Origin: Ruditapes philippinarum
Taxonomy: Eukaryota
Direction: 5' to 3'
DNA: 64,000 nucleotides
NCBI RefSeq assembly: GCF_026571515.1
Contig: NW_026857847.1
Span: 1 to 64,000 of the forward strand
Shown piece after piece: positions 1-46,500 of the stretch; the stretch's first letter is position 1; each line of letters begins with the position of its first letter. Both the position numbers and the translations under genes were made by a program. Below the pieces are notes generated by a model that was not told where the DNA came from, did no database searches, and worked only from the letters and a program-made list of their open reading frames with translations.

Positions 1-125
1 GAAAATTATTTGTCCAGAAAGTCAAGAAACGAAAACTTATTCTGTAAATATTTTTGTTTTAATTTATTTAACTTCTTACTTACATAGGCATGCGACCGAC
101 GTCCTCTTTTGTTACATGCACTTAC

Positions 126-2915
126 ACGATGGTCTTTGCGGCATTTGCCTGCCGCCTGTTCATCTGAGCATGCTTTTGGTTTCTAAGACAAAATGTCATA
201 CATATCCATAAAGTATATGTGTAAGTCAAAGATAAATACTATAGGTTAAAAGTAATCAGACTCGAAGAAATAAAAAAATATAATATATTATAATTGGAAT
301 AGTTAATACATGCCGAGTGTTTTAAACGGACTCATTTTGCAACAATTTTTTGGAACTGTTAATTATCGCTTTTGGATATATCATATAAATATGACAATTT
401 GAAACGGGGTAGCCAACACTATAGAGCCTGACCAGACATCCACATGTACAGGCTGGTCTGGCTGTATACTAGTGGCCAAGGCTTATCACTTTCTCTTAGA
501 ACAGGGTACAAGGGCTGTTAAATATAAATGCAACTAGGCCAATATCTCGCTTTTAACCATGTTTTGCATGTATCGCAAAGATGGTTGTGTAAGTTCTCCA
601 TTGATACAAAATATGTGTTAATCAGTTCATTCCATCTTTGACAATAGCTCGATTAATGCTTTTAACTCGTGTATACTAAAGCTAAAATGGTTGGCAAAGG
701 TCTCTTTACACTGACCAAATACGGTCCTGTATCAAGAACCGCTGTAATCTTGGTATACAGGCGAAATGCATATTGAATAAAATATGTCGGGTTTATGGGA
801 ACAATTAACTTTTTTCTTCATCTGCCACACGGTGGTGTTAGAGATTTAAAAGTGGTTTTGATTCAGTAAAAAATGCACCTCATGCACGCCGTCCGAAAAT
901 TGCAACTTCGCAAAGAAATGGTTGGAAAAGGAAAGGATTTTATTGCTATTGATACAAGATTCACAACAAGGTATATAGTTAAATGCGTTGGTATCTCTAC
1001 ATGAGCCGCTCATACAATCCTCAGAGGTGATTTAAAATGAAGAGGGTAAGTGCCAGACAGAAACCCCATCTCGTTACAAAAGAGCAAAAACTTGCTCCAG
1101 TAAGAATCTCCAAACAATTGTTGAAACAGTTCCTTAAATACAAAAATCGATCTTCGAAATATCATCACTGGCGATGAGACGTAGGTTCAGGTAAATAAAC
1201 ACAAACGAAAGATACATAACAAAATATGGGCAACCAAAGGAAGTCAAAGACGTTTGCATGTATCAACGAGCAGTGATCATCAGAAACCCCATCGATTATG
1301 TGCATGTATAAAGATCTATCACGCTGCCCGATCGTTAGAACTTTACAGGGGTGTTCAAATATGAAGGCAACTGGGTCAATTTTCAGAAGTGCTTAACAGT
1401 GCCAAAATAATCATCTCAATCCTTCAAAATACTCAACACCATGTGATATACAAAGTTTTAGTCTCTTTTGATCCAATTTTTAAATGCATTTTCATAATTT
1501 TTTTGAGGTATACTGTTCAGACACTTGAAAAATAGCCGAACCGTGATTTTTAGCGTTTGATATTATCTTCCAGCAAGGTGTTTTCTTGAGCGTCAGAAAT
1601 AGGAAAACGTCACAAGGGGCAAGATCTGGCGAATAAAGATTGTGAGGAAGTTCGAAATCGACAACCTTTTCCTGTTTCAGATATTCTCGTACAATGACCA
1701 TAAACACGATAATGTATTATTACACTAAAACATTTAGGCTGTTGTGTTCGTATTATCGTCATACAGATAATTTTAAAGCATATTTTGCTTGATTGCATCT
1801 CATGTTAAGTTATGGTGAAACAATAAAATAACAAGGAAAAAACTTGTTAGACCTATCTTCACAACAATAGAGACACCTGGCTATGTTTAGTTTTTCTGAT
1901 ACATAGTAGTAAATTATTTTTGAATCATTCAAACCAGTGCACACACTCAAAATAAGACAAGGTACGCCCCACTCAGGTCCTGCATTGTGTTGCAAAAGCA
2001 GGGAAAGGTCACATCATACATTAACACAATGAAGAAGGGTCTGAAATGTTCATTTAATTATTTATATTCATGCTCTCGATTGACAATCATTATTCAGAAT
2101 TTACGTTTCCCTACTAAAGTGTAAAAATACATACACGTGAATGTTGTGGCACATGAGGTGGTTGGCTACGACGTCCAAGTTCGTTCAACACCGCTCCAGC
2201 AAACTGACCGGCCGTACCTGATAGCATATCCAAGCCTGACTGATAATCTGAGTTCATATCCTAAACAAACAGATTTGTACTTGATAAACAATAAAATTAA
2301 ACTTCCTTTCGTGAATCGTTTCATAATTATCTAGAATTAATAAGAAAAGCCGAAAAGCAATTCAAATGAGTGAATGACGTATTTGGTGTCTTGTCACAGT
2401 TTCAAAAAAATACTTATTTGCTACCCACAGATAATGTCTTTTGCTTAATTTGCTTGGTTGGAAAATGCTATATTTAGTAAACTAGTATTTTTTATGGAAG
2501 TCAAAATACATGTACTATTTTGTTTACATTTTGCTACCTTTACAACACATCACTGCATGTTCAGTGCTACTTTCTTCAGTTGTTGAATATCTATCATGCT
2601 CTAAATCCATTATAAAGACACTTTCAAACAATCGTTGGACAATAAGAAAGAATTTTTAAAAACATACGGATTTCTAAGGCATAATGTGCCTTGAAGTTTT
2701 CTGGCTTTGCATTTAAACTCGCACCAGACCTGATGAACTTCTTTCTCTAACCGACATAGCACAACATTACAATAACATGTCTACGAATGTGATACCAGGG
2801 GAGTAGTCGAATAAATTGCCCATTTATACATCAAGATCGCCGACATATTAAAACTGTACAACAAATATTGAAATTAGTAAAATCTTACATTTCTCCGTTG
2901 GTCTCTACCGAACAT
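126..2915 (-). CDS. Gene D (5' part only): paralog of gene B, continuing beyond the left edge. Exons: 2915-2889, 2260-2135, 182-126
   Basis: MFGRDQRRN|DMNSDYQSGLDMLSGTAGQFAGAVLNELGRRSQPPHVPQHSR|KPKACSDEQAAGKCRKDHR, with splice sites at the same positions as gene B. The exon 3 length difference (57 vs 48 nt) preserves frame. Confidence 0.78.
507..1715. mobile_element. Mariner relic in gene D intron 2, 3' half inverted
   Basis: TIR-like taCAAGGGCTGTTAAATATAAATGCAACT at 507; N-terminal transposase remnants on +; second TIR at about 1344 in the same orientation, followed by YSPDLAPCD on the minus strand. Confidence 0.8.
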
Positions 2916-4584
2916 CGTTTATGCCGAAAAAATACGATAACATTAGAAAAATGAAAAACGGCGAATGATCTTTGACCTTTGTTGACAATATAACAATATT
3001 TACTATATTAATTATAAATAATGAATTTTCACCATCTTCAAAATATTTCAAGGAAACAAAAGTCTGTATCATTTGATATTCTCTTCCGCGATAAAAAAAA
3101 ATTCAAATCATTTTGTTCTGGTTTCAACCACTTAACTTAACATAACTTAATATCTTCAATTATATTTGTATCAACTGATGAGATTAACTTTAAATGAGGA
3201 TGGGGTGGTTTTGTGACTAATTGTCTCATTCATCGGTTGATAGTTGACTTCCTTCAATCCAAATATACAACTAAAAGTATGTTAAAAATATAAAATACAT
3301 TGAAATATTTTCCTGTATTTGTATCAATTACTGGGTCCATCTTATTAAAACATATCTAACACTTGTAGTTAAAGAGTCATTTTGGCAAGTTGTATGACTA
3401 AGCTTATATAACGAAAGTGGCAATGCGAGTATGTTGTATTATCAGCAATTATTGATACATGGTCATATAACCTATCAATAGAAATCTTTATAAATAACAC
3501 AGTACTGCAAAATCATTATTGTTCGAGGGTCACTAATTTTCGAGTTTTGTAGTTGTTGTTTTTTTGTTAATATATCAATCCACGAATGTAAGATCCAACG
3601 GAAATTTATTTCATTTTCTAACTACTACTGATACAAGGTATTACATTTTACTTTGCACAAAAAGACAATCCACGAATTAACGATTCCTGGAAAATGTCTA
3701 TTTTTAAATTAAAAATAACAACAACAAAAACAACATTTATGTCATGAACGCGAAAGTAGAGGAACTGAATTGAGTTCAAAAAGCATAAAAACATGAGCAA
3801 TTTTGAGTCATTATTCACAATTATAATAATTATTCTGGAAAAGAACGGAGAAAATATATAATCTGAAAATTTGCAGATAGCTATAGGTTATTGGTCTAGA
3901 CAAACAATTTCGACAAGTTGCTTAAGAAAGAATCTCCAAACAATTGTTCAAACAGTACCCTAAATATAACAATCGATCTTTCGCAAATATCATCACTTGA
4001 GATGAGACTGAGCCTACTCGAAAGATACATAACAAAATATGGGCAACCAAAGAAAGTCAAAGACCATGCATAACAAAACGCACCATGAGCACCAAAATGG
4101 TCATGTATGTAATTTTCTTTGCTATTCAAATTGGCGTACCAAAGGGTAAATCTGTAAATGCCAAGTTTTACAAAGGCAAGGTCTTTCATAGATTAAAGAA
4201 ATATTTTAAAAACCGTCGACAATGCTTCGTCACAAAAAGCGGCCATTTACGAGTCAGGAAACAGGAAAAAGGTTGTCGACCTTCCTCACACTCCTTCGCG
4301 AGATGTTGCCCTCGTGACTTTTTCCTATTTCCGACGTTCAAAAAACACCTGGTTGGAAGAAAATATCAAATTGGAAAAAATGTCGGTTCGGCTATCTTCC
4401 AGTACCTGAACAGTATACCTCGAAATGATTTTAAAAATGCATTTAAAATTGGATTGAAAGACTAAAACTATGTTTATCACATAAACTGCGGCGCAGGAGT
4501 GTAATAAAGTCATTTAATAAAAACGATATTACACTAGTGTAATAACACTTTGACGTCATTTGCGCTATATAGAAACATAGCGTT

Positions 4585-9638: not shown

Positions 9639-12600
9639 TCATTCTTTGATTTGCACGGTGGAGATCATGACGTCACCATCAATACGGAGTGTATCAATAC
9701 AGCTGAAGGTCTTGATCCTGTGATTAAATTCCACAAAATGCTGATCATCAACTGCGACCTGAAAATGTAGCCATTTCAATGAATATTCGTTTCCATTATT
9801 TATCACGTCTTATGTAACACTTGATTTAACATTGTAGCTGAATTTACCTTTTTTATAAAAAGATTTATTCATAATGAGGAAGTTATCCGTTTCTTTTTAT
9901 TTAGTTAAGATTATACAAATTAAGCAAGACTCGGGTAGGAAACTTGTTCCTGGGTTTGAACTCCCCCGGGGCCACTGCTCTCTATAAATCATTATATTTA
10001 TTTGTATGGGTTAAAGTAGTTCGCTTAGGAGCGCTTTATGTTTGTCGAGTATGAGATCAACAACAAAAATAACAACAACAGCATCGTACATATGGGGCAA
10101 TGTTTGGGTATTAATCGTTCCTTTGAGCTTTGATATAGAATCAAAATTAAAAACATGTAGTGTACATGGTATGTATATACCGGTATGTGAATCTCTAATA
10201 CAAGAAGACATCGGCATTGCCAGAAATTAATTGACATTGATTACCTTGAAACAATCACGGTCAACCAAGATAATGATCTGAAATTCTTTTTCTCGTTGGA
10301 ATGGAAAACACGGAGCAGATCTTTCCTCCTGTCTGCTATCCCATGCTCCTTCCTTGTGATTTCTTACTACGCAGTTTGTACTGACAGGTGTACCCCACTT
10401 AAATCTAACATCAAATACCATGGCAACAAATTTTGGATCGCGACTCTCTCCTTGTTGAAGATATATCGAGAAGCTGAAAAAGTTTAAGTGAAATTATTTC
10501 ATAGTTTATCTATGCTATATTTAGGCATTTAAAAGGGTATAAGATATAAAATAATGGCAAATTAATCTGACAAGGAAAAGGACATTTCAAGTAAAATAAT
10601 TTTGGTAATTGTGTAAGTTGAAACATTCGAGTGTTCCATGGTATTCTTCTTTTTCACTCGACCACCTTTTATCGGTAGAATGAACATTTACTAGCTTGGT
10701 GTATGCTGTCTACTTGTTTCCAGCAGCGACTGGCCTGTGTATGTGCAAAGAGAGTTCCGTTTCAGTAAATTTCGCAAAGAGAGTACCGATATGGATATGC
10801 ACCGTGCTCACTGTTCACTGTTTTAATTCTCATTACCAGGAGTTTAAAATACATGAGTTAAAATCATAATTAGTTTAAAACTTCTACTTATATGGATTTA
10901 AAAACTCCTAATTTAGAGTTTCTAAGTGGAATTTATTTTTTTTTTCATTGAACAAATTTAACATTCTATATTGAAAATAACTTATTATCAGGAGTTTGTA
11001 AATTCCTTAATAAGATCAAATTTAAGAATTACTTCTCTCTTTTATAGACTATAACTTATATAGAGTTCCCCTATAGTTTTCTCGTTTAGGGCACACGCTG
11101 TCTTTTACTTAGGGACCATTCGTCGCTTGTCACGGAATAGCATAAAAGTGTCGCATAGAAGTTTTCATAATGAACGCAGCATGAACACATCTGCGGATGT
11201 TACAAAACTTCACCATGTGTCATGTTTAAATGTTGAATTCTACTTAAGCCGGTACTTGGGGGAGTGGACGGTAATTGGCAGTACCGTCTATGAACAAGGC
11301 TGAATCAAGCCTGCCTGCAACGATTTCAATTTTGTTGTGTTGGGTGTTCTTACGGAATCCGTTTTCTCTATTTGTTAAGAAGCACTTAAATCATAATTAG
11401 GAATTTGTATAATCCAGCAAGGACTTCATAATCCGCATGTAATAACTTATTCCCAAATAAAATTGTAAAATTCAGTTTAATATGCTTTATTTTTTATTGG
11501 ACAGTGTGTCTTTAGCAGATGCCAACAAAAATTATAAACTTTTTGTAGTTATCAATACATGTTAGATCACCACAGCTAAATGGCATCCATGATGCCGGTA
11601 ATACGGTGTGGAAGCATCATTCATCTATAATTCCAAAAATAAACATCAGATCTATAAATAAGTAAGGTATTTACCTTTTGGCGTTAGAGTTTGGGATCCC
11701 ACACACCAAAATGATCTTGCCCTCATGGAGACCATGGATGTTTTTAATGTAAGGAGCTTGTGACTGAAAAAAGAAAACACATTACATGTCAAAACAAATG
11801 ATCAGATAATACAGAATGAGGCTTTTGATAATATATCACAAGTCATTTATCGCCTTTTTGTCAAGCAAGCACGTCCCATCTCACTAAGAAACTTGAAGAC
11901 AAAGAATAGCAAATAAAATACAGCTGCAGAATATTTAGTATTTGTATGATTCGAGGAATTACTGATTATTGAATATAAACCATATTTCTAAACAATATAG
12001 AATAAATGTACGTCTTTGTAGTATAACAATTATAGATGATATAATTGCAATTTAATCAACGTGTTTTCATACTTGAACGTGATTTATAAAATCATTTTAC
12101 TATTTGGAGAATAAGGATTGTAAATAGTTAATAATGTTTTATAATTGAACGTGTTTTGTATATTTCATGAATAATTGAAAATATCTTTCAAATATTTGTC
12201 ACATGTACAAATTCATATAGATTCTACTGAACTATTACATACAGGAAATGTTGGTACAGGGATATATGACCTTGTAGTCAAGGTGTCTGTCGGTCAATCC
12301 AGTGTGTTTAAATCTTATTGTGGTCACGGTCATATTTCCTCATGCGGAACTAGTAGATTTTAACTTGATTTATTTTCGTTCGAATCTGAAGAAAACCATA
12401 AGCTTACAGACACACTTTTGACAAAATTATTTGCTCATGGAAACAACAATTTCGAACCAACGATCAATCAGTGAAGAGGCAGGCACCTTAACGACTTGGT
12501 CGCCTCTTCTTGATAAGACATTAGTGTAGATTATATCTGTGGAGTATGGTATGGTAGTGTATGGTTTGGTATGGTATGGTATGGTATGGTATGGTATGGT

Positions 12601-14741
12601 ATGGTATGGTATGGTATGGTTCGGTTCGATATAGTACAGTATAGTACAGTAAAGTACAATATGTTATCCATTGTAGTATGGATACGATACGGTACGGAAC
12701 GGTAAAGTACAGAATGGTATAGTATAATATGAAACGTTAAATATCACTTCATATTTATAAATACGAACTATTTTAATGACAACAATGTCTCGTTAAAGAA
12801 CTCTTAAATAAGCAATCCTAAAATCCTATTTATACAACTTTCCTCGTGAATACCTGCAGGAATTCCTCTTCCCATTGGTCGATGAAAGGGAGACGAATCT
12901 TGTAGCTGTATATTGAAATTATATAATTATAGATATTTTATTACGAAATTATTTGACGATAATCGCAAACAGTTCTATTCTCTTTTTTGTCATATTTATA
13001 TATTTACGCCACTTACTTGTCTGAATTCTTCGGGAGATGTTGGGCGAGAAAAATCATCCATTTCTTTCTGAAAAAGAAATAAAACACACTTTGCAAATTC
13101 AGTACCAAAAAGTTTTAATTGGCGACATTTTGATGATCTTCTCAAGGGTCAATTTTCATTAGACGTGATACAAATGTATTAACAGTACGATTGACCAATG
13201 ACAATATTGATGATTAATTTAAGAGCATTATTGAGAGTATGCGATTATTTGCCATATAACCTGTATAAACGGATTTGTGACTAAATGACCGAAATTGCAT
13301 AGCGGGAATTAAATGGCAAACAACTGTTTAATCTTGGTCATATAGCTCAAAAGTAATATAACGAGTTAATAACACTGCATTTCATTTTGAACGGATATCA
13401 CTTTATAAAGTCGCCTTATTTGTACACGCAGCATTATTATAATGAGGGTCGTTACAAACGTACTAGTTTGTAAGCAAGTACACCGGACGAGACTGACTTT
13501 TGATGTCGTAAAACAATAAATTTATCATTCTTAGCATCATTACCAAAATAACAAATGAGTTTTTTTATCATCAGAGTCTGAGTATGTTTATGAAAATCAT
13601 TATCATATACCGTAAATGGGGAATGTCCAAATCCGGACTTCTCGCCAATAGGCCGATCGGCTTGGATTATAACTTTGTCGACCTCACTTAGGAACGACCC
13701 TGCCAAATTTGTCACATTAGCAGCAATTTTGAAGCATCTCTCACGCCGTGACGCCTTTTCCTAAAAAGGCATTGTTTCAGTTAGACCAGAAACAAGGAGA
13801 ACAAAAGCGACACTACGAAAACTCATGCCAAATATTTCAGGTCAAGACTTTATCGTTTAAGAGATTGACGATGATTTTTTTTTTTTTTAATTATTTTTTA
13901 TCATATACCGTAACAGGAGAATGTCCAAATTCGGACTTCTCGCCAATAGGCCGATCGGCTTTGATTGCAACTTTGCTGACCTCACCGAGGAACGACCCTG
14001 CCAAATTTGTCACTCTAGCACCAATTTTGAAGCATCTCTCACGCCGTGACACTTTTTCCTAAAAAGGCATTGTTTCAGTTAGACCAGAAACAAGGAGAAT
14101 AAAAGCGACACTACGAAAACTCATGCCAAATATTTCAGGTCAAGACTTTATCGTTTAAGAGATTGATGATGATTTTTTTATTTTTATTATATTTTTTATC
14201 ATATACCGTAACAGGAGAATGTCCAAATCCGGACTTCTCGCAAACAGGCCGATCGGCTTGGATTGCAACTTTGCTGACCTCACCGAGGAACGACCCTGCC
14301 AAATTTGTCACTCTAGCACCAATTTTGAAGCATCTCTCACGTCGTGACGCCTCTTCCTAAAAAGTCATTGTTTCAGTAAGAGAACAACAACGACACTACG
14401 AAAATTCATGCCAAATATTCAGGTCAAGACTTTATCGTTTAAGAGATTGAAGATGATTTTTATGACATTTATTTTTACATTTAAGGTAAACCAGTGAACA
14501 CCGTGGAACAGGGTCAATTTTGACCCCAGGGATATAATTTGAACAAACTTGATATTGGTCAATTTTACAATGTGTCATGCCAAATATCTAAGCTGCAGCC
14601 TTTGTGGTTTTAAAAGGAGGCGTTTTAAACAATTCATTATATACATATAAGAAGAAACCAACGACCTCATGACATCAACAACAACAAAAACAAGAACACG
14701 ATATATGGTCTTACCTCTTTGTTGTTATTCAATCCGTACAT
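9639..14741 (-). CDS. Gene C: divergent single-CRD galectin, ~203 aa. CRD exons (confident): 11763-11675, 10473-10245, 9758-9639. N-terminal exons (tentative): 14741-14715, 13067-13017, 12905-12854, 12286-12243
   Basis: CRD: SQAPYIKNIHGLHEGKIILVCGIPNSNAKS|FSIYLQQGESRDPKFVAMVFDVRFKWGTPVSTNCVVRNHKEGAWDSRQEERSAPCFPFQREKEFQIIILVDRDCFK|VAVDDQHFVEFNHRIKTFSCIDTLRIDGDVMISTVQIKE*. The upstream GT-AG exons join in frame as MYGLNNNKE|KEMDDFSRPTSPEEFRQ|LQDSSPFHRPMGRGIPAD|TLTTRSYIPVPTFP. The 12286 acceptor has a poor pyrimidine tract, so that exon is the least certain. Confidence 0.8.
11065..11345. repeat. Dispersed repeat; inverted partner at 15527-15812
   Basis: ttttctcgtttagggcacacgct...gaacacatctgcggatgtt...catgtttaaatgttgaattct.cttaagccggt is the reverse complement of the 15.5-15.8 kb segment. 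Confidence 0.8.
12545..12622. repeat. (TATGG)n microsatellite with degenerate pentamer tail to about 12725
   Basis: Directly visible. Confidence 0.9.
13600..14465. repeat. Tandem repeat, ~298-bp unit x ~3, in gene C intron 1
   Basis: tcatataccgtaa..gg.gaatgtccaaat.cggacttctcgc recurs at about 13603, 13901 and 14199, with high identity across the units. Confidence 0.9.
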
Positions 14742-17788: not shown

Positions 17789-20700
17789 TCAAGTCTGTAT
17801 CCTAACCTGGGTAAGTGTGACGTCACCATCAATGCGAAGGGTATCGACACGGTCGAGTTGCCGGATCCTGTGATTGAACTGCAGCATATGCTTGTCGTTC
17901 ACGGCCACCTATAAATAAAATGTACCAGAAAAGGTATATACTCACTAAATATCGGCCCCTTACTATTTCTCTCAGAATTTGCAAGTCTTTAAGAACAACG
18001 AAGGATCAAATGTGTTGAGTTTAGATATCTACAACTTTAAATTGTTATTATAATTAATGTATAATCACCAACATTCACATCAGCTTATTCCCAGTGTAAG
18101 ATACAGAGTAACGTCAGCAGAGAGGCCCTTTGCAGAACCATAACCTTTTAACAACAACCAATTTTCCCACATTGATATTTGACTCTGAATTTATCTTCTG
18201 TAGAGCAACATCTCTTAGATACAACCAAAACAGTAACCTCCCAAAGGATTTTGCTGTGCAGAGACTGTTCTGTACGAACTTATTCATGACGTAAAACTAG
18301 GTGTTTGACGGCAGACGTTATCCGATTAGGGGTGTCACGGTAAGTAAAAATGTTAAAATCAAACTACCAAAGGAACCTTCCTGAGAAGTTTGGATGAAAT
18401 TGGCTTAGCGGTTTATGAGGAGATGTCGTTTAAAGTAAAAGTTAACAGATGGACGCCGAACGAAAAGCGATCACAAAAGCTCTGTCACCATGTCACTTTG
18501 TGACAGGTGAGCTAAAAATACAAACACAATGAAATATCTTATCATAATTAAACAAAAGTAATAATTAAAACTTATCTAAAATGCTTCATCTGAACCTCGG
18601 TTTCCGGTTTTTTAAATTTTTTGACCGATTCATTACTCAAATCCGACAGAAGCCGTTTAAACGGATAAATGCGTGGCACTCCTATATCAGATTGTGCCGG
18701 CTATTGATATTCAATCAAATGTTGAATATTCCAAAACATTTCAATAAAACAACGTCTCCGATAAGTAAAGTTACATTGAAAACTTAAAATGTGCAATTCT
18801 TTAAGGACCACAAAGATCAAATGCGTTTAGTGAAAATATCTTCAACCTATTATTTAAAAAAGTATCAGTTTTAAATTAGATTCAAAAACATTCACATCAG
18901 CTTATTTCCAGTGTCAGATACGGAGTAACCTCTGCAGAGATGCCCTCTGTAGTACTATAGGCTCTTAACAACAAACATGATCAAATTTTCCTTTTGACAG
19001 CAGATGTAATTATATTGATATTCAATCAAATGTTCCTAAACATTTCAATAAAACAACATCTCCAATAAGCAGAGCAACATGTAAAACTTTTACCTTAAAA
19101 CAGCCTTGTTCAACCAAAATGATCATCTCGAAATGTTCACCAGTTTTAAACGGGAAATACCCAATCTGCCTCTCTTCCATACCCCACCCACCATCTTTAT
19201 GGTTTCGTACAATGCAATTCCTATCATAGCCGTAAGAAAATCGTACATCAAAACAAAATGTGATTAATGAAGGTTGAAACTTGTCGCCATTCTGCAGGTA
19301 AACTGTGAACCTAAACAGATATATATATATATATATATAATGTCTTAATGACATGAAACTGTTTGTGTCCTTGCACGTGCGTGTGCGCGCGAGAGATAAT
19401 ATGTATGTGTTTCTACGAAAGATTTACGTAACAACTCAAATGCTCACTTCCGGAAGTGGTAAAAACTATAATGCTGAGATACTTAACTAGTGTATTAGAA
19501 TATGTTGCTGGACTCTTTTTATGATATTTTACATTCTATGTATATTATTGTTTATGTGACTGATGCATCTAATAGGCCCAACATTTTCAAAAACTGTTCA
19601 ATAATAATTTTATGCTTATCTTATACTAAAGTTATCATGCATATTTTATATACGACTGAATATAATCTTTTCGATGTCAATTTCAATAGAAGTTACAAAA
19701 ATTATTAGTACAAACTCATACAAATTCGTTTCAGCTAGTTTCTTTGAATTATGTCGTTGAGGTCACAAGATTTGTCTAAGATATCTATTTTACGCTGACG
19801 TTGCGTTCTTAGAATGACGTCATTTTGCTGTTATAAATGAAGTTGTAAATTCATAATTATGCTACTGTAAGAAACACAGTGCGACATGAAAATATCAGTT
19901 TTCGTAATTTCTTTCCGAAATAAGATAATTACATGTCGTCACAAGCAAGAATATCAAGCTCTCGTGTTTACTGTATAGTGGAAATCCGGCAGAGCATCGT
20001 TACCGCCGTAAACAGTTACCCTCGAGCTAGATATTCATGTCTGTACCGACGCCCAATGTACCGGCCCCCGGTGTAAGATTAATATATTCTGTCGGAATGT
20101 ACCGATTATACCCGAGCTTCTGCGGTATTATCACTTTATGTAACACTGATAAAATGTATTTTGCATACCTTGTCGCCTTTGGTCGTGGTACTCCGCAGAT
20201 GAAGATTATATTATTTGGCTTGAGATGACCAGTTTTATGTATATATGGCATAACCTGTAAAGTGCAATATCATATCTATTTAAAATCGCAGACAAAATTG
20301 CAAAACCATCCGTAATACACCCACTACAAGCAATAAAATATGCAATAAAACTATTTCGACAAAAAAGAAAAACAGGCACATGCATCAACACTTTATTCAG
20401 ATAGTGATATTGTGAGGACAATAAAAAAGAAAAAACATACAATCAAAGTAAACAAAACTAAACAAAACGATGAGGTATAAAAACAGCAAAAAATAACAGT
20501 TCAGCAAACAAAAATGATAATATTAAAAAAAATAAAAATGATTTAAGTGATAAGAAAATAATGAGTAGCAACCAGATAATGCTAGGACCAAGGAAAGTCA
20601 GACTAATAGGCAGGTTGTTAGACGGGAAAGCAAGCACATATCACAAGGTAAAAATTATTTGTCCAGCAGTCAAGAACGAAACTTGTTCTGTAAATATTTT

Positions 20701-23700
20701 GTTTTAATTATTATTATAACTTATTACTTACATAGGCATGTGACCGACGTCCTCTTTTGTTACATGAACTTACACGATGATTGTTGCCTGCCGCCTGTTC
20801 ACCTGAGCATGCTTTTGGTTTCTAAGACAAAATGCCATACATATCCATAAAGTATATGTGTAAGTCAAAGATAAAGACTATAGGTTAAAAGTAATCAGAC
20901 TTGCAAGAAATAAAAACGTAAGATATATTATAATTGGAATTTATAACACATGCCAACTGTTTTAAACGGACCCATTTTGCAACTATTTTTTTTGAACTGT
21001 TAATTATCGCTTTTGGTAATATCATATAAATATGACAATTTGAAACGGGGTAGCCAACACTATAGAGTCTGACCAGGCTTCCACATGTACAAGCTGGTCT
21101 GGCTCTATACTAGTGGCCAAGGCTAATCACTTTCGGTTAGAACAGGGTACGAGGGTTGTTCAAATATGAATGCAACTAGGCCAATATCTCGCTTTTATCC
21201 ATGTTTTGCACGAACTATGTACATGTATCGCATAGATGGTTGTGTAAGTTCTCAATTGATACAAACTATGTGTTAATCAGTTCAGTCCATCTTTGACAAT
21301 AGCTTGATTAATGCTTTTTACTCGTGTATACTAAAACTAAAATGGTTGGCAAAAGGTCTCCTTACACTGACCAAATACGGTCCTGTATCAAGAACCGCTG
21401 TAATTTTGGTATACAGGCGGAGCAATGAAATTTCTCCTTCATCTGCCACACGGTGATGTAAGAATTTTAAAAGTGGTTTGGATTCAGTAAAAAATACACC
21501 AAATGCAAGCCGTCCGAAAACTGCAACTTCGCAAAGAAATGGTTGAAAAGGGAAAGGATTTATTACTATTGATACAAGTTTTACAACTAGGTATATAGCA
21601 AAATGCGTTGGTATCTCTGTAGGAGCCGCTCATACAATCCTCAGAAGTGATTTAAAAATGAGGAGGGTAAGTGCCAGATGAAAACCCCACCTCCCTACAA
21701 AAGAGCAAAAACTTGCTCGAGTAAGAATCTCCAAACAATTGTTGAAACAGTTCCTTAAATACAGCAATCAATCTTTCGAAAATATCATCACTGGCGATGA
21801 GCGTGAGTTCACTTAAATAAACCCAAGCGAAAGATATATAACAAAATATAGGCAACCAAAGGAAGTCAAAGACGTTCGCATGTATCGACGAGCAGTGAAC
21901 ATCAGAAACCCCATCGATTATGTGTATGTATAAAGATCTATTACGCTGCCCGATCGTTCAAACTTAACGGGGGTCTTCAAATATGAAGGCAACTGGGTCA
22001 ATTTTCAGAAGTGCTTAACAAACAACAAAATAGCCGAACCGAGATTTTTTCGCGTTTGATATTTTCTTCCAGCAAGGTGTTTTTTTGAGCGTCGGAAATA
22101 GGAAAAAGTCACAAGGGGCAAGATCTGGCGAATAAAGAGGGTGAGGAAGCTCGACAACCTTTTCCTGTTTAAAATATTCTCGTACAATAGCCGCTTTGTG
22201 TGAGGAAACATTGTCATGTAACAACCTGACACCACAGAGATCAGTTGCTGGTCGACGGCTTTTAAAATACTTCCTTTTATGAACGACATTGCCTTTGTAA
22301 AACTTGACATGTACAGATTTACCCTTTGATAAGGCAATTTGAATAGAAGGATCTTGATTGTTAAAGAAAATTACATACATAAACCTTTTGACACTCATGG
22401 TTCTTTTGCTACGCATCGTCTTATTATAAAAACATGCTTTATGTTCGTTAGGCATTTAATAATGTACTGAACTTATTTTAACAGTTCGAATAAAAATTGA
22501 AATAAAAGAGTTGAGAAAAAGCTGTTTAAGATAAAAATTATCGTAATGCACATTTTGAAATATTTTTAAAGAACCTAAATGATCACGCGATACAATGTAC
22601 TACATTTTAGCTGTAAACACGATAACTTTTTATTACACTTAAACATTTAAGCTGTTGTGTTTGTATTATCGTCAAACAGATCATTTTAAAGCATATTTTC
22701 CTTGATTATATCTCATGTTAAGTTATGGTGAAACAAAAGCAAAATAACAAGGAAAAAACTTCTTAGACCTATCTTCATAACAAATGAGACACCTGGCTAT
22801 GTTTAGTTTTTCTGATATACAGTAGCAAATTATTTTTGAATCATTTAAGCCAGTGCACACACTCGAAATAAGACAAGGTACGCCCCACTCAGGTTCTGCG
22901 TTGGGTTGCAATAATAGGTCACGGTCACATCATACATTTACACATTTAAAAAGGGTCTGAAATGTTCACTTAATTCATTATATTCATGCTCTCGATTGAC
23001 AATCATTGTAGAAATACGTACACGTGACTGTTGTGGCACATGAGGTGGTTGGCTACGACGTCCAAGTTCGTTCAACACCGCTCCAGCAAACTGGACGGCC
23101 GCACCAGATAGCATTTTCAATCCTGAATGATTATCTGCGTTCATATCCTAAACAAACAAGATTTGAACTTGATACATTTCCTTTCGTGAATCGTTTTATA
23201 ATTATCTAGAATGTTCCAAACAATACGATTATAGTATGTCATTGCGATAAAACAGTTATAGTATATGAAACTCGTTAGTTACGGGGATATAACACTGGCT
23301 GGGGCGACATCTCGGGATGTTTCTGCAAAAACGGCCTCGCCATATTTTAGCAGAAACACCCCTTGATGTCGCCCCAGCCAGTGTTATATCCCCGTAACTA
23401 ACTCTTTTCAAACTTAAAAACTCGATAACATTGTTTCGTTTATTTAAAGAAGGAAATAATATAATTATTATTTAGATTTAGTTTTTAATCTTCAAAACCT
23501 CTGTGCTCTACTTTCTATTTCACTATATTTTCATCGTTTTTTAGATGTATTTTGCTCAATTCACGTTAAAAACGAAAGTACATAAATTGGAATTGATTGA
23601 CTGTGTAAAGACAAGAAAATAAGCCGAAAAGCAAGTAAAATGAGTGAATGACGTATTTGGTATCTTGTCACAGTTTCCAAAAACAAAATATGAACAAGTA

Positions 23701-24215
23701 CTCATTTGTTACACAGTTTCAAAAAAGAAAACAAGAAAACAAGTACTCATTTGATATAACCATCAAATATTTTTTGCTTAATTTGCTTGGTTGGAAAATG
23801 GTTTATTTCGTGAACAAGTATTTAATAATTATGGAAGTCAAAATGCATGTACTATTACTAGTACTTTCTCAAACTTTTAATATCTTTACGACACTTCACT
23901 TCATGTCCTGCGCTACTTTTGTCAGTTGTTGAATATCTAACAACATGCTCTTAATTCATTATAAAAACATTATCAAACACACCTTGGACAATGAGGAAGA
24001 ATTTTTAAAAACATCTGGATTTTTAAGGCATAAAGTTTTGCAGTTTAAACTCGCACTAGGCCTTATACACTTCTTAATTTAGCCGACATATGCATTAATG
24101 CATGTCTACCAACTTGATAGCAGAAGAGTACTTTAGTCATTAAAACAACATCGCCAACATATTAAAATTGAATTAAGTAGAAACTTACATTTCTCCGTTG
24201 GTCTCCACTGAACAT
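17789..24215 (-). CDS. Gene B: single-CRD galectin with ~67-aa N-terminal tail, ~207 aa. Exons: 24215-24189, 23147-23022, 20821-20774, 20254-20169, 19310-19094, 17908-17789
   Basis: GT-AG introns in frame: MFSGDQRRN|DMNADNHSGLKMLSGAAVQFAGAVLNELGRRSQPPHVPQQSR|KPKACSGEQAAGNNHR|VMPYIHKTGHLKPNNIIFICGVPRPKATR|FTVYLQNGDKFQPSLITFCFDVRFSYGYDRNCIVRNHKDGGWGMEERQIGYFPFKTGEHFEMIILVEQGCFK|VAVNDKHMLQFNHRIRQLDRVDTLRIDGDVTLTQVRIQT*. CRD exon lengths (86, 217, 120 nt) are identical to gene A CRD2 using exon B. Confidence 0.88.
18360..18518 (+). mobile_element. 3' fragment of the 42241/53809 element family in the last intron of gene B
   Basis: accaaaggaac...gtttggatgaaattggc...atcacaaaagctc...gacaggtgagctaaaaa matches 43160-43325. 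Confidence 0.75.
21148..22425. mobile_element. Mariner relic in gene B intron 2, 3' half inverted
   Basis: TIR taCGAGGGTTGTTCAAATATGAATGCAACT at 21148; HTH/IITGDE-region remnants on +; minus-strand ORF 22015-22455 with LHDN...HPLYSPDLAPCDFFLF. Confidence 0.85.
23255..23410. mobile_element. Palindromic element in gene B intron 1 (part of a copy-specific insertion; related piece at about 48320-48460)
   Basis: ttagttacggggatataacactggctggggcgacatc ... gatgtcgccccagccagtgttatatccccgtaactaa is a perfect inverted repeat. Confidence 0.8.
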
Positions 24216-37514: not shown

Positions 37515-40500
37515 TTAGCCCTGGAATCGAACCTGGGTTAGCCTCAAGTCACCGTCAATGCGAAGAGTGTCGATCAGGTTCAGCTGACGTACTCGATGGT
37601 TAAACTCTAGTAGATGCTGATTATTCACCGCCACCTGAAAGCAGACATTGATATTTTTAAAGAAAAAACAAACAGACATCTTTTTTTTCAATATTGTGAT
37701 ACATAAAAATATTTTAGATTCTGTTTAATCATTATTTAAGCTCAGAATTCAGGAAAAGTTAAAAATAGCTTCTTTGAACCACATTCGAGTCCGCTTCCTG
37801 GAACTAAACCAGCACTTGAATCAACCGGGAAAACACGGCCGTGTTCCTAGTAGGGTTCGAAGCCAAAATCCATACTACCTTAATTAACAAAATTAACAAG
37901 AGCTGTCGGTATGACAGCACGCTCGACTATTCTAAGTCAATCTGATGTACCTTGTTACTATAAATAAGTATTGTAAGTTTCAATTGAATATCTCAAGCAA
38001 TAATTGAGATATTTGACTTTACAAAAAAACTTTAACCAAAATTTCTAAGTTGCAAAGGGGCATAATTCTGTCAATATTGTAGGCAGAGTTATCCAACTTG
38101 TCAATCTGATGTACCTTGTTACTATGAATAAGTATTGAAAGTTTCAATTGAATATCTCAAGTAATGATTGAGATATTTGACTTTACAAAAAACTTTAACC
38201 AAAATTTCTAAGTTAAAAAGGGGCATAATTCTGTCAATATTGTAGGCAGAGTTATCCAACTTGTCAATCTGATGTACCTTGTTACTATAAATAAGTATTG
38301 AAAGTTTCAATTGAATATCTCAAGTAATTATTGAGATATTTGACTTTACAAAAAACTTTAACCAACGCAGACGCCGACGCGGACGCTGACGCCGACGCCG
38401 ACGCCGGGGCGACAACAATAGCTCTCATATTCTTCGAATAGTCGAGCTAAAAATGAAATTAAAATAGATCAGAAAATATTCAAGTTGGTTACGGATTTTT
38501 AAATTGACTTGACCTTAAATAGATGGTAAAAATCTTGGTAGTTTCGGTTTCAAAAGCTTGTGTTATAATCATTTACTGAATTAAAATTAAGGACACTAAT
38601 TGCTTACAATCTACTTACATTACTTCTTACAAAATGGTGATGTTAAGTAAAGTAATAACAAAAGTTTTTCAACACAGTATTTTGAAAATTTCAAAAATAA
38701 TTGAAATAATAATGCACATAATTTTACATAGAAATTTCACCAATATAGAAAATACCCAGATTTGACCTAAAATTATTTAGTTATATCATTTCAAAGTAAC
38801 AATAGTCTTCTTTAAAAGAACAATTACAGAAAGGCTAAAGTTCATCATTTTGTAAAGCAATATGCGCAGCAAGAGCTTGTAACCAATAAAGTATAGTTTA
38901 ATATCAAATATTCATTTTGTCACACAGTTTACAGTATAAATTGTATAAATATAATGATTAACGCAAGAACTAAGAATTATACAGCTATATATTTAGATAT
39001 ATCAATGATAGTGTTATGCTAGTTTTATTCTACTTCTATTTGTTCTATTTAAGAAAAAGTAAAGGGAACTAAATATCTAAAAAAAAATGTGCATGCACAT
39101 ATTTAATTCATGCTATTAGAAAGGTTATTTTTAACATCAACAAAATAACATGATCTCAATTTTCATCGTCGTTTTAACAACTATGTTTACATTATATGCT
39201 CTACAAACTAAAATCTTGCATTAGTCCACGGTTCTCCCACGAAAACATCATTTCAAAATAAAAAAAAACAACTAATTCCATGCAAATACTTTAAGCTGTT
39301 AATATGCGTATTTATGCGTTCAATTGTCTTTTCATGCGTACTTATGCGTATTAAAAAGTTGTTAACTTATAAGGCTTTTAAAAATCAAAATTAAAAGAAA
39401 GAAAAAATATAACAAGAAGCAAGTAAGTTTGCATATGCAAGCTTATCAAGTTATATTTGTTACATTTTATGAACATGAATTTTCCCTTATAGATGTGATA
39501 GTAAAATTTCATACAAATGTTAAATGATCCGGTACCAAACGGTTCGAGATGAAGACCAAATGAAATTTGGGATAAGAGCACGGATATGTCGTGACATTAT
39601 TATTGATAGATCGTCTTTTTGCGTGACGTTGGTTTTAGCAGACAAAGCAAGACTCGGCATTGAATCAGGCAAAGCGTGACTAAGCCATGAAACGGAGAAA
39701 AATTAACTGCTTTGAATCAGACAAGGTGGTGTTTTGCTTTTAAAACAGACAAAGCGTAATTTTGCTTTGAAATATTCCCAACAAAGCGTGACTGACTTTG
39801 CTGTAAAACAAAGAGCGTGATTTTGCTTTGAAACAGAAAAAGCGTGACTTCTTTTAAAACAGACATAATTAATCAGCAGAAAGCAAAGGTGAACCCAAAA
39901 ATGTTAAAAAAAAACACACACACACACAGAATTGATCAAAAGAGTTGGGTATTTATATCCAAAGGGTGACGATTTGGAAAATCCAATATGTAATGCTGCA
40001 CATAAGATACATAAGCCATCGGACAAGAAGTCTTTATAGATTTTATTTTTTAAATTCATTTATAATTCTCCCGTGAACTACTTTATGCATCAAACCGGAA
40101 ATATTTATATATATCTTTCGGACACAAAAACCTAAGTGGTTTGTGTGGAGATGTTGCGAATACATGTTTTTGTTTCTTTCTTTCTGCCTTTTGTTTTATC
40201 TTTCGTGGGGGAATTGTTTGGTTATCTACCTTGTAGCAATGTGGCTCAATCAAAATGATCATCTCAAAGTTTCCATTTGGCATGAATGGGAAATGGGTCA
40301 CGTGCCTCTCTTCTTGACCCCAGTTCCCTTGTTTGTGATTCCTTACGACAACATTCCGGTCATTGCCGTAATTAAATCTAGCATCAAAGCACATTCCGAT
40401 ATGGTGAGGCTCGTGCTGACTTCCCTGCTGAAGGTACACTGTAAATCTGGAACAAAAATCTCGTGCATTCATTCCACGTTGTGTCGCTAATCATGCTATG

Positions 40501-43500
40501 AATTTGAAAACTTAAAATACAATCGATCAAAGGTTATGCAAGCACTAAACTACGCAATGTGAAGTAAAATGGATAGTTCCCGTTACAATCGCCTTTACGT
40601 CCAGTATATGCTCTGAGAAAATAAAAAATATCGTGTTCAAAAGAAGATATAAAATCAGGATCGGTCAAAAATCAGGATCAGAATTTTAAGATATCTTATT
40701 ATGGTTAATAAATTTCATCACAAATATCAATATAAATGGCAACTAAACATTTCACTACCGGACTGTCCACAATATCTTACTCTCATAAACATTGCATGAT
40801 ATATTTTTGAATATCAGAAAGTCAATGCTAGTCGTTAGACATCAAATATTGTTAACCAAGTTTCGGAAAAATGCCTCCGATTTTCCTAGGAAAACATATT
40901 AAAGCACTGCATAACTTTCACAATTCTGACTTTATAATTCTTAAAACACGAGGTCATTGAGACCCGTCTTTTAATAAAACAGAAAATGCAGAAGTTGACG
41001 ATTGGAATGCAGTAAACATCAAGCTGTGTCGATACCTATCTATTATCCGTCTCTCGATCAAGTGAGGCAATGAAATTCGGATGAACTCCAAGAGCAGAAC
41101 AGGATTTCAAAAGCGTTCTTTTATAAAAATTAACACGTATGTTCCTTTAAATGAATAAAATGGTTCTGGAAATCGCTTGATTTTTCAGTATTAATAAGTT
41201 TGACTATGCAATTTTTAAAACTATCGGCGACTGAAATTCCCGTTCTATTTCTCAAGATACCAACTAATGATGAAAAAAGCATAAATCATGTGTTGTATAC
41301 GCAACCATCACAAACCCGCAAAAAATCAGCATGTTCCAGAACTTTCCGTAAGCAATCCGTAAGCGACCAAGAGCTAAAGCGACCAAAATTAAAAATTTTT
41401 TATTCGCGATACATAATGGGTATGGACAGTTCTGATGTTAGCGGAATTCTTGCGAGCTATATATAAATAAAAAACATATGCATTGCAAACATGTGTTAGC
41501 AGGTAAACTCTGGTTATCTAAAACAAACAAGCAAGCACTGAGTGTCATTAAACATACGAACACGTGAACTCCGTGCAGATTTCATACTACCTTAAAACAG
41601 TATGGCTCGACAAGAACAATCGCTTCAAAATACATATTTGGTTGAAAGGGGAAATAACCGCAGGGCAGCGTTCTTTCTTCCGGACCCCAAGAATTCGTGA
41701 GTAGGCTGTTTCTGACGATTACATTTCTGTCATTTCCATAGTTAAAACGAACATCAAAGTGAAATGCAATGTCGCCATATCCGCATTGTAAGTTGATTGA
41801 GAACCTTTGACAAACATGCACATGCCAATATTAATTCGTTAAAATTCGGCATATTCCGTCACTTTCCGTGTACAATACATATTTAATAAACGGCTACATG
41901 ACTAGGAGCAACAGAAAAGAATCTTATCAACCAAACGCTTCTTACATAGAAATACAAATAGGAAAAGTGACGACAACGAACTGATTATAAATAAAGTACA
42001 GTGAAACCTCTACAAAGTAACACCCTTTCGGACACAAAGTTTTTGCAGGTGTAATTCTGCAGAGGGTAGATTTTTAGTAATTGATTACTTCGGGTAGAAT
42101 TGATACTGTTGCTATACAGAGGTTATCGGTCTATAGAAGGCTATTCTATACTGGTTATTCTGAATCTATATAAACTCGTATAAATCATACCGTGAAAAGA
42201 AACTTAAACTGAGAAAACCGTTAACTAAACATTATAATAAACAAGAGGGCCATGATGGCCCTGAAGTCGCTCACCTGTATATAGGCCCCCCCGGAGCATG
42301 GCCAGTTCAAACCCCAGGGCTTTTATTGGAACAAACTTGGTAGACACCCATTAGAAGATGTTTCATGCTAAACATCTAAGGTTTAGCTCGTTGGGTTTTT
42401 TAAAAGAAGATTGTTCAAGCTTTTCCTTTACACATATATTTAAAAACAATGACACCCCTGGGGCAGTTTTGACCCCAGGGCTTTTATTTGAACAATCTTT
42501 GTAGACACTTACTAGGAGATTTTTCATGCTTAATATCTAAACTCTAGCTATTCGGGTTTTTTCGAAGAAGATTTTTAAGTTTTTGCTATACACATATAAG
42601 GCAAATCAATGAGCCCCCCCCCCCCCGGGGCGGGGCCAATTTTGACCCCAGGGCTCTTATTTAAACAAACTTGGTAGACATCCATTAAAACGTGTTTCAT
42701 GCTAAATATCTTAGCTCTAGCTCTTTGGGTTCTTTAAAAGAAGATTTTTAAGTTTTTACTATATTCATATAGGGAAAATCAATGACCCCCTGGGGCGGGG
42801 CCAATTTTGACCCGAGGGCTCTTATTTGAACAAATTTTGGAGACATATATTAGAACATGCTTCATGCTAAATATCTTAGCTCTAGCTTTTTGGGTTCTTT
42901 AAAAGAAGATTTTTTAAGTTTTTACTATATACATATAGGGCAAATCAATGACCCCCTGGGGCGGGGCCAATTTTGACCCCAGGTCTTTTATTTGAATAAA
43001 CTTGGTAGACACTCACTAGAAGATGTTTCATGCCAAATATCTAAGCTCTAGCTCTTTTGGTTTTTTAGAAGAAGATATTTAAAGTTTTTTCTTTTGGTTG
43101 CCATGGCAACCAGTGTTCTGCATGGAATTAAATTCTTTGAACAATTTTCAAAGGTGACCACCAAAGGAACATTCCTGTGAAGTTTGGATGAAATTGGCCT
43201 AGTGGTTTATGAGGAGATGTCATTTAAAGTAAAAGTTTACGGACGACGGACGGACGGACGACAGGCGGACGCCGGACAAAAATCGATCACAAAAGCTCAC
43301 CCTGTCGTGACAGGTGAGCTAAAAATTGAACATCGCGACCGACGGTTTTCTATCTCACACATTGTATAATTGAACAATATTCCTTACACAGTTGGAATAA
43401 ACGTCATGTCTTCCAAATAAAATTCTGTTTTTGAGACTTCTGTGCAGTGCCTTTGTCATAAAATTATTTGCGAAAATCAGAAACCATATATTTGTACCCA

Positions 43501-46500
43501 GCCGTAGTTTGGTTTTTTACAGCCAAATATCTAAATGCCAATATTATAGTAAGATTTTGATTAAAAAATGAACTGTCAAGAACAAAAAATATCTTGTATT
43601 GGTTGTTCCTCGGCAACCTTAAAGTTTGTGCATGTTGATATGAAGTGTATTCGCGAATTTCCTATGTAAACTAGCTGTGTAAAACCTACACTAATAACAA
43701 ATGAACCGCGTCACGACAAAACCAACATATTGGGTTTGCAACCAGCATGGATTCAGACCAGCCTGCGCATCCGCGCAGTCTGATCAGGATCCATGCTGTT
43801 CGCTACCAGTTTCTCTACTTGTAATAGGGTTTGTAAGCGACAGCATAAATCCTTATCAGACTGCGCGGATGCGCAGGCTGGTCTGGATCCATGCTGGTCG
43901 CAAACGCATAACGTTGGTTTTGTCATGTTGGGGCTCAAATATATTCTATAAAGAAAGCTGCATCATGAATAATCCTATATGACCCGATGCAACGGCAGTA
44001 CCGCCACCATAATCTCCGTGTGCACCTGATGCATGGACTAAATTATTGTTCGCTTAAATCAAAACAGTTATCATATTCTCGTGAAAATTCGTCACTTTTC
44101 GTCAAGTTACGTAACATAATAAACTTTAATCCAAAGCTGAAAATAACGATGTTTACCGAATGTAGACGAAATACTGCTTAACGTTTATAATAATGAATAT
44201 CTAATCGTTATTGCCACTAAATGTTAGATTCATATTTGTAATAAGTAGTTCGTTAATGAAATTTCATTGAAAATCAAAATAAAGATATTTGAATAAAGTT
44301 ATTTTTCTTTATATTCAGGACAAAACAGATTCGATTAATTCGTTTTATGAAATTAAATTACATGATTTGTTATTTGATTTGTTATTAAAATATTTTGTAA
44401 TTAAAATGAAAATTGTGTCATGATTACTTTTTAAATAGATTTTTAGCTCATGATTTAAATGAAGTAACCACGTGATTTTTACCTGCTTGGATTTGGATGT
44501 GGCACTCCGCTGATGAAGATCATCTTGTTTGGATAGATGCCTCCCATACCCTGAACGAATGGTACCGGCTGCAAAATAAACAGAAAGGACATGTTAGAGA
44601 CGAAATTTCGAAAATTTTCAAAGAAACAACGAAATGGTATACAGTATTAAAGAAACAAAAACGGAATGACAAAATTCGAAAAAATGCAAAGAAACAACGT
44701 TACTGTATACACTTTTAAAAGGACAAATTTAATAAGAAGAATCTTATGCACTAACGTGTATATACGAGAGTATAGAACCAATGTGCCGCCAATAGAACAA
44801 CTATGAATCAAAATGATTTAACCTAAACTTTATGCAAATCAATATGATGATAATAACAGATGCAAAAACGAACTTCTTTCTTTGTAATGTCAAAAAAAGT
44901 AAATGCTGATTACTTACCGGGTTGAATATTGGGCCGCCCCCGGGGTATGGATAACTGGCCCCTCCAGATGGCGGGTAGCCACTACCTCCACCATGCTGAA
45001 ACAAAAATTAGGGATCTATCATATCAACAAATATGCGCGTTGCGTTGTCAAATGCCGCAACGACGCTAAATGTCACTTAATATGTCGCACTGTTAACGCT
45101 AAATATCGCAACCGCCGCTAATTGTCTCAAAGTGTTTTGCCGTTAAATGTGGCAATGATTACGTTAAATGTCGCATCACTTTCCCTTACCGTTAAATGTC
45201 GCAGCACCGGCGTTAAATGTCGCTTTTGTTTTTTGTTTGTTTCATTCTACGCCTTTTCCCAACAGTATTTCAGTCATATAGGCGGGCAGTTTCCTAACCA
45301 TAGTTCCTGGAGAGTAACACCAGTACTAGACTACCTTCCACCGCGCTAAACTACCAAAGCATCTCCCGGAGATCGAACCTCACTTCATTCGAATTTTTAT
45401 ATCACAGGTACCCTCTCATTTTTTAACACATAGGTACCGTCAAAGCACGACATATGCTTTTAGGTGCGTTAATCGCTAAGTATGTAATATTTACATAAAA
45501 GTAATAAATATTACATACATACTTAACGATAAACGCAAATAAAAGCATATGTCGTGCTTTGAGGGTACCTTTGTGTTCAAAAATGAGAGGGTACCTGTGA
45601 TATAAAAATTCAAATGAAGAGAAGTAGCCAGTGCAGCTGCAAAACCGAAAGTAGAGTGTTTTTATGAATTTTACATTTATTTTTGACAATATACTACCAT
45701 TTGTCCGAAGATGATATGAACATATTAAATATGTATGATGCATATATAATCACACAGGTTCATTTCAGCCCGAAAAATATGTCGTGGTGATGGGCGAGGC
45801 AAGACATGTCGGTTTGTGAAGTTGCAGTACATGAAAATCGGGCACATGACAAATCAGCACATAAATAAAACATCATAGTGTTCCGTGGTATACATCTTTT
45901 CTACGTGTCATACCTCTTTTCCTTATGACAGTGAAAATTTACTGGATTGTTATCCATTGCAGGTTTGTTTTTAGCAGAGAATGACCTGTGCATGTTCAAA
46001 GAGGGTACCGTTTGAGCAGATTTCGCAAGGAAAGTACCGCTATGGATATGCACCGTGTAATTTCATGTATACCAAATGGTATCAAGTCAATACTAGCGTC
46101 AAGTGGATGATCTGGTGAATGATCTGGTGACTAGCTATTTATAAAATAGGAAAGGTTTTGTTGTGATGTACAAAGTTATTGGTTGAAATTGAAGTCATCT
46201 GAGTTGGTATTATAAATTGACGACCATAATTTATATGCCAAAAGGCCTCTAACTGTAAGGCATCTTTGTATACGTTTTTCATAACAAATTAGATGTCGTG
46301 ATTTTTAACTACGACATCAGTTTGAGATTGATCTAACACACTACAGTTTCATAGACATAAAGGCAGATTGAAAACAGTATAATAGAATTTGCTTTACACC
46401 GCTGGAACCTAAAATGATTTTACCAGTATCAACATACATGTTGCCAGGCTTCATGTACATCTGTGCAGACTTAACCGGCCCTGTACTTATGGCTGACTAA

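Follow-up and report, generated by a model that had tools for sequence, protein, structure and literature searches.

Gene B, a single-domain galectin gene of the venerid clam Ruditapes philippinarum, very probably arose from the 3' half of gene A, a two-domain galectin gene in the same cluster. Both lie in the stretch analysed here (the window), which comprises the first 64,000 nucleotides (nt) of contig NW_026857847.1. The minus strand of the window carries a head-to-tail galectin cluster in the order A - B - D - C, with C at the start of the contig (C6334), and a second haplotig (C9468) has the order A (3' part) - B - D - an additional partial D-like copy. The best overall explanation, and one that we consider likely, is that B descends from A and that the linker between the two carbohydrate-recognition domains (CRDs) of A was turned into a tail, with a proposed role in docking, in front of the single CRD of B.

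On the minus strand, gene B (24215-17789) comprises six exons with canonical splice sites and is both intact and spliced. Its open frame encodes 221 residues with the 90-nt cassette exon 3 and 191 residues without it, and an in-frame TAA lies two codons 5' of the ATG. Proteins 100% identical to its middle CRD exon are labelled R. philippinarum, and close relatives Mercenaria mercenaria. The exons are as follows:

24189..24215, minus strand: exon 1, 27 nt, ATG, 9 codons, phase 0; the 5' untranslated region is contiguous to at least 24365
23022..23147, minus strand: exon 2, 126 nt, phase 0-0; tail exon, homologue of the gene A linker cassette, with a Gly-rich predicted amphipathic helix
20732..20821, minus strand: exon 3, 90 nt, phase 0-0; in-frame cassette tail exon
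20169..20254, minus strand: first CRD exon, 86 nt
19094..19310, minus strand: middle CRD exon, 217 nt, 2b type, with Cys at the canonical His site
17789..17908, minus strand: last exon, 120 nt, stop; the internal GT after 17807 is the site of a RefSeq B-D fusion

The first-pass annotation, made from the letters of this DNA, had named five of these exons, all of which are present, and had omitted the cassette exon at 20821-20732. Intron 2 also contains a transposase-like fragment (22224-22078), which we take to be of mariner type.

Probable derivation of gene B from the 3' half of gene A

The CRD exons of B (86, 217 and 120 nt) have the lengths and phases of those of A CRD2 when A uses its middle exon 2b, with AG/GT ends and an open frame throughout. 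Exon 3 of B occupies the place of the second linker exon of A, and no sequence likeness was found between these two exons. Gene A is organized as follows:

63743..63763, minus strand: exon 1, ATG, 7 codons, phase 0
52376..56630, minus strand: CRD1, four exons (56630-56542, 55972-55885, 53102-52983 and 52486-52376)
50033..50167, minus strand: linker cassette exon, 135 nt, phase 0-0; the exon from which the tails of B and D derive; some isoforms skip it
44918..44995, minus strand: second linker exon, 78 nt
44483..44568, minus strand: CRD2 exon 1, 86 nt
41591..41804, minus strand: CRD2 middle exon 2a, 214 nt, alternative, canonical His retained
40230..40446, minus strand: CRD2 middle exon 2b, 217 nt, alternative, Cys at the His site; the type found in B and D
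37515..37634, minus strand: last exon, 120 nt, stop

The likeness of the B tail to the A linker was measured with a 20-column matrix built solely from the linkers of three tandem galectins (gene A of Ruditapes, Mercenaria and Mya). When this matrix was used to rank the 35,615 stop-free 20-mers of the window, A came first, followed by C exon 2, B exon 2 and two D exons. The gene B tail matched with a shuffle p of 0.0005 and, among the tails or linkers other than that of A, 10 of 11 matched at p<0.05 (2000 shuffles in each case), the exception being a Mercenaria triple gene. The core of the motif reads GQFAGALFNEF in A and VQFAGAVLNEL in B. At the DNA level, alignment to the A linker exon gave codon-shuffle p values of 0.002 for both B and C and 0.026 for D. 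A Pfam scan of three linker or tail exons returned 0 families. A matrix of oyster and Pinctada linkers recovers the clam motifs as well; because its matches are often four residues out of register, homology of the linker at this greater depth is plausible at most.

The CRD itself was placed with a tree of 67 rows drawn from 116 CRDs, in which the vertebrate row is sheep galectin-9 and there is no galectin-3 row. The B group (5 rows, 98/95) and the D group (3 rows, 100/99) each contain Mercenaria orthologues and join each other at 94/85 within a starred clade (100/96). This 2b clade also holds the A 2b CRD of Ruditapes, Mercenaria, Mya, Dreissena, Sinonovacula, Archivesica and unionids, and a starred branch has all 22 N-terminal CRDs on the same side. 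The clade was recovered (96/89) in a tree of the middle exon alone (55 rows of 60 CRDs, with lgn25, Mactra, Mercenaria B1, Solemya1 and the Dreissena fusion left out). In approximately unbiased (AU) tests on a 32-row subset, placement of B+D with the N-terminal CRDs was rejected (p=0.027), as was placement outside the lophotrochozoan C-terminal CRDs (p=0.015). Copy C was tested only via its RefSeq model, the CRD of which does not map exactly to the contig, because a CRD for C was found nowhere in the assembly.

Two-CRD genes with this C-terminal CRD occur in bivalves, gastropods, a chiton and a brachiopod (Lingula), and Mercenaria, Mya and Dreissena have the linker motif between their two CRDs, as do oysters and Pinctada in a looser form. 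Because two-CRD genes are this widespread and the motif is inter-domain in Mya and Dreissena, the polarity from linker to tail is well supported by these sequence comparisons. B/D-like proteins were seen in two venerids only (Ruditapes and Mercenaria), which is weak evidence for their absence elsewhere. Database queries were single exons and RefSeq proteins. A profile search of 1.84 billion representatives (best 150 of 2526 matches) returned mainly multi-CRD proteins, adding one Mercenaria tail-plus-CRD gene and one Dreissena fusion; since the representatives are clustered at 50%, this search cannot show that B-like genes are absent elsewhere. The split between Ruditapes and Mercenaria is put at ~179 million years (My) ago in PMC7831173, and the orthologue groups suggest that the origin of B and D predates it. 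We infer that A, B, D and related genes are also neighbours on one Mercenaria chromosome.

RNA evidence came from six runs (X1, X2, X14, X21, X22 and X23) among 24 listed; the first mapping of reads was dominated by interspersed repeats. The joint between exons 1 and 2 of gene B, over a 1041-nt GT-AG intron, is present in RNA contigs of two runs from two studies: X14, which is recorded as RNA and has a short side of 26 nt, and X2, which is RNA by guess and has 86 nt. The exon 2-3 joint (20821-23022) is present in contigs of X1 and X2 and in one X23 read, and one X1 contig links exon 5 to exon 6 and continues to the stop. Against this, the raw-read runs X21 and X22 hardly reach exon 2 (depths of 0 and <1) and lack the exon 1-2 joint. 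No joint of exon 2 to an upstream CRD was seen among the joints and loose ends listed.

Most of what the first-pass annotation had proposed for gene B is upheld by these results: homology of exon 2 to the A linker exon, CRD exons matching those of A CRD2, a linker turned N-terminal tail, a CRD that nests (as do those of D and of the C model) in the CRD2 exon-2b clade, and a distinct 9-codon ATG exon that transcripts join to exon 2, with no upstream CRD seen in the transcripts. The direction of derivation, which it had only inferred, now has the support of outgroups.

Fold, sugar site and tail of the B protein

The B protein contains one Pfam domain, PF00337 (102 bits against a cut-off of 22.1, scored on the B protein of the other haplotig, whose CRD amino acids are identical to those of the window B), and thus does not have the two CRDs in one chain of the tandem-repeat type. 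The modelled CRD adopts the beta-sandwich galectin fold and matches the CRDs of galectin-3 and galectin-8 at about 2 A, galectin-3 being the top Foldseek match. At the sugar site, the canonical His is replaced by Cys in B and by Val in D; it is replaced in 21/21 rows of the 2b clade. The remaining Arg, Asn, Trp, Glu and Arg are kept in B, and the second position is Asp, as it is in 54/55 lophotrochozoan rows. The CRD exons of the two haplotigs differ at 10 nt, all synonymous, with 0 replacement changes, and the B CRD is, as far as these two sequences indicate, under purifying selection. It would be expected to bind glycans weakly or with shifted specificity, like gene A CRD2b. Without CRD1, B would be monovalent and would not cross-link two glycans alone. 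Galectins are generally cytosolic or secreted non-classically, and the same is expected of B because it has no hydrophobic leader.

The AlphaFold model of B places a helix at residues 12-38, and the hydrophobic moment of the motif is above that of shuffles (p<0.05) in 9 of 12 homologues. The B tail is 51-81 residues long, with a Pro fraction of 0.05-0.06 and a Gly fraction of 0.10; D tails run to about 175-220 residues, and the Pro fraction of the D and Mercenaria tails is 0.03-0.08. In a prediction of a two-copy complex of B tail residues 8-48, the score was 0.03 against a mark of 0.32; the controls did not fold, and the result counts neither way. In clams, Dreissena and oysters, alternative splicing includes or skips the linker motif of gene A as a cassette, which in oysters is 14 residues long. 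That the helix is a functional module is suggested by its being splice-switched in A and multiplied in D. We propose that the predicted amphipathic helix would dock B on partners, on membranes or on itself, and that this Gly-rich element, tripled in D, would most likely take over from CRD1 in providing avidity or localisation. In that case, B and D would serve as monovalent or clustered companions or competitors of A in clam glycan recognition. A docking or clustering role for the modelled helix is a tentative proposal, with a probability somewhat under one half. A broader version, which we regard as rather unlikely, is that bivalve tandem-repeat galectins have long carried, within their linker, a splice-switched amphipathic helix of glycine-zipper-like character, and that venerids re-used and multiplied it to form the tail, oligomerising or membrane-docking, of a second chimera-like class of independent origin.

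Routes of origin and alternative explanations

This section takes up the alternatives together with the observations that weigh against the account given above. According to that account, the two-domain gene A would have been duplicated in tandem before Ruditapes and Mercenaria separated, giving rise to B and D; a whole copy of A probably then shed its CRD1 exons and exon 2a, and the linker became an N-terminal tail. Since exon 1 of A finishes in phase 0 and its linker exon opens in that phase too, such a deletion would leave frame, promoter and start exon intact. Contig C9932 carries gene F, which looks like an outcome of this route when its sequence is set beside that of A: a 7-codon, A-like first exon is followed by an exon like the second linker exon of A and then by a C-terminal-type CRD. 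Rat galectin-5 is likewise described (PMC8699261) as having arisen from galectin-9 by duplication and partial deletion. The main competitor is a partial duplication, the route named by the first-pass annotation, in which copying covered just the segment from A intron 5 to the 3' end, and the copy acquired its promoter and 9-codon first exon anew. The first exon speaks for it: B, D and Mercenaria B and I appear to share 9 codons where A has 7-8, and the 9-codon exon of B is without likeness to A exon 1. The best DNA match of B exon 1 to gene A scores 35, with a null of 32 +/- 3.5, and the exon 1 regions of B, C and D have no match above shuffles in all gene A DNA. The absence of CRD1, which the first-pass annotation had reported correctly, also extends to remnants: none of CRD1 turned up in the A-B or the B-D interval, and a hidden Markov model (HMM) search found none of CRD1 or exon 2a around B and D on both haplotigs. 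With partial duplication, however, a promoter as well as a phase-0 start exon would have to be gained, and gene F and rat galectin-5 (PMC8699261) favour the other route. A micro-exon, moreover, could lose its likeness over about 179 My (as dated in PMC7831173). Retention of the parental first exon fits B and D in phase and position but not in sequence likeness, which is present in gene F. Duplication of the whole gene with loss of CRD1 fits as well as partial duplication or better, and the latter is not established. Between the two, we lean slightly towards the whole copy with deletion, while partial duplication retains an appreciable but smaller probability.

A second alternative concerns the tail, which could be a neutral leftover of the linker, with B and D acting as galectin-related proteins through protein contacts and not through sugar. 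The replaced His is in its favour, as are several properties of the tail that tell against a docking role. Between haplotigs, tail exons 1-2 differ by 12 nt in residue-changing codons against 1 synonymous nt, mostly before the motif, a pattern that fits weak constraint at the sequence level; tail exons also change in copy number. In one Mercenaria B paralogue the motif is degraded, with much of it lost. The window's own B allele is among the 3 of 12 homologues without a significant hydrophobic moment (p=0.125), and the helix in its model has a predicted local distance difference test score (pLDDT) below 50. Against a neutral tail, the motif is in register in Ruditapes B and D and in Mercenaria B1 and I. 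Against a galectin-related function, the other sugar-site residues are kept, and the identical His change occurs in the 2b form of A, which matches a deposited tandem-repeat galectin (B1AAP1). We consider this alternative improbable, although by no means negligible.

A third alternative is that B and D form one secondary tandem-repeat galectin (B-CRD, linker repeats, D-CRD) through splicing out of the last exon of B. On this contig, RefSeq does annotate B and D as one two-CRD gene (XP_060597369-72), in models that run from window position 17807 to 14356 by means of a GT within the last exon of B. Three points disfavour the fusion as the main form: a 27-nt ATG exon of its own heads gene D on each haplotig, RefSeq gives B and D a model each on the other haplotig, as it does in Mercenaria, and the X1 contig passes through the B stop. 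A single B-D gene is therefore very improbable; the RefSeq fusion is probably a mis-fusion or minor read-through, and read-through from B to D may exist as a minor isoform.

Two features of the trees also weigh against the main account: the B+D support (94/85) is unstarred, and in the AU tests a sister relationship to venerid A2b alone is no more than not rejected (p=0.235). Finally, the reverse direction, in which a tail-plus-CRD gene was ancestral and A was formed by gaining CRD1 in front, could draw on the position of B+D as an open fork within the 2b clade, but it can be set aside as scarcely credible given the two-CRD genes of bivalves, gastropods, chiton and brachiopod, the motif as linker in Mya and Dreissena, and B/D-like proteins in just two venerids.

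The galectin cluster and known galectins

Gene D resembles B in its 9-codon first exon and extends the tail by repetition. Its exons in the window are:

14715..14741, minus strand: exon 1, 27 nt, ATG, 9 codons, phase 0; has a counterpart on the other haplotig
13611..14356, minus strand: three tandem 150-nt tail exons (14356-14207, 14058-13909 and 13760-13611), each homologous to the linker cassette
9639..13067, minus strand: remaining exons, 13067-13017 (tail) and 11763-11675, 10473-10245 and 9758-9639 (CRD)

The open model of D is 321 residues long, and its CRD is of the 2b type. The linker-like tail exon is present in three copies here and in two on the other haplotig; an additional Mercenaria gene has two copies. 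A further D tail exon in the RefSeq model of the other haplotig corresponds to 12905-12843, where GA, not GT, is found at the matching donor position; on the other haplotig, the exon pair that includes its counterpart occurs in three tandem copies. Copy C runs off the contig start and is either a paralogue or an extra haplotype:

84..2915, minus strand: copy C exons 1-3 (2915-2889, 2260-2135 and 182-84), B-like

The region of copy C (window 1-3900) is a third version of the 5' half of B, 84-91% identical to both haplotigs.

More single-CRD galectins derived from C-terminal CRDs were found outside the window, of a 2a-like type on C9932 and of the 2b type on C840 and C713; such births have therefore recurred in the clam. 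A Mercenaria model (P0015) has three units of a His-rich tail plus a 2a CRD, and a Dreissena model (P0274) joins an unrelated N-terminal domain, presumably SPRY-like, to the 3' half of A.

Within gene A, the middle exons 2a and 2b of CRD2 are mutually exclusive, both running from phase 2 to 0, and offer the canonical His or Cys. The annotations of Mercenaria and Mya likewise include isoforms of both types. Exon 2a clusters with other bivalve paralogues and separately from 2b (94/93, middle-exon tree), and for this reason the pair may be very old; it is possibly more surprising than the tail itself. Some RefSeq isoforms of gene A include an additional Lys/Arg-rich exon of 16 codons (51351-51304), which was not seen in the relatives examined. 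UniProt B1AAP1, a Manila clam tandem-repeat galectin, is the 2b form of gene A without the linker cassette (96% identity across exon 2b), and is probably McGal. B1AAP1 thus has two CRDs without the cassette, whereas B and D have one CRD with it. McGal is described as microbe-induced and pathogen-recognising (PMC3950279).

Rat galectin-5 is the nearest precedent in origin. Like B and D, it has a single CRD, which comes from the C-terminal CRD of its tandem-repeat parent, galectin-9, and it is the product of a lineage-specific duplication. Galectin-5 keeps the 13-residue first exon of the parent together with the three CRD exons, has a canonical site and is a monomer (PMC8699261). In B and D, linker exons have instead been kept and expanded, and the His is absent. 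Like galectin-3, B has an N-terminal non-lectin tail and one C-terminal CRD, and galectin-3 is itself a proposed descendant of the C-terminal CRD of a tandem-repeat galectin (PMC10343441). The galectin-3 likeness drawn by the first-pass annotation holds for this domain order but not for the tail: that of galectin-3 has nine collagen-like repeats (PMC6026190), while in that of B, where a helix is predicted, Pro makes up 5-6% and Gly 10%. "Chimera-like" thus describes architecture only, because the B tail lacks the Pro/Gly repeats. The middle exon of B ends within the strand at model residues 150-155 and is of the long type. Galectin-3 has the short S3-F3 middle exon, whereas B has the long type as in gene A (PMC10343441). 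The B CRD also nests among clam CRDs in the 2b clade (in a tree with no galectin-3 row), in agreement with the independent origin proposed at first pass. LGALSL/GRP and LGALSL2 share with B a single CRD, an N-terminal extension, an altered binding motif and a C-terminal CRD origin (PMC10343441); in B, unlike in these, the site residues other than His are kept and the origin is a separate one in clams.

The automatic RefSeq names for these proteins are "galectin-3-like", "galectin-8-like" and "galectin-5-like", and the annotation of B and D on this contig is flagged here as a probable mis-fusion of two genes. In the literature titles and abstract openings searched, which leave most subscription journals outside, linker-derived tails and mutually exclusive CRD exons in bivalve galectins are undescribed, which is not proof that they are unpublished.

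For vertebrates, it has already been inferred that single-CRD galectins were born from the C-terminal halves of tandem-repeat genes, but the source of tails such as that of galectin-3 is unanswered in the literature covered. Here, the tail can be traced to a linker exon, with parent and offspring genes adjacent in one cluster of a farmed clam whose tandem-repeat galectin has been linked to parasite recognition. The linker, usually treated as a passive spacer, holds a conserved, alternatively spliced motif with a predicted helix, and mutually exclusive exons swap the sugar site of CRD2. If the helix does oligomerise or dock, the clam cluster would show, as a living model, the making of a tail in the style of galectin-3 out of a linker.

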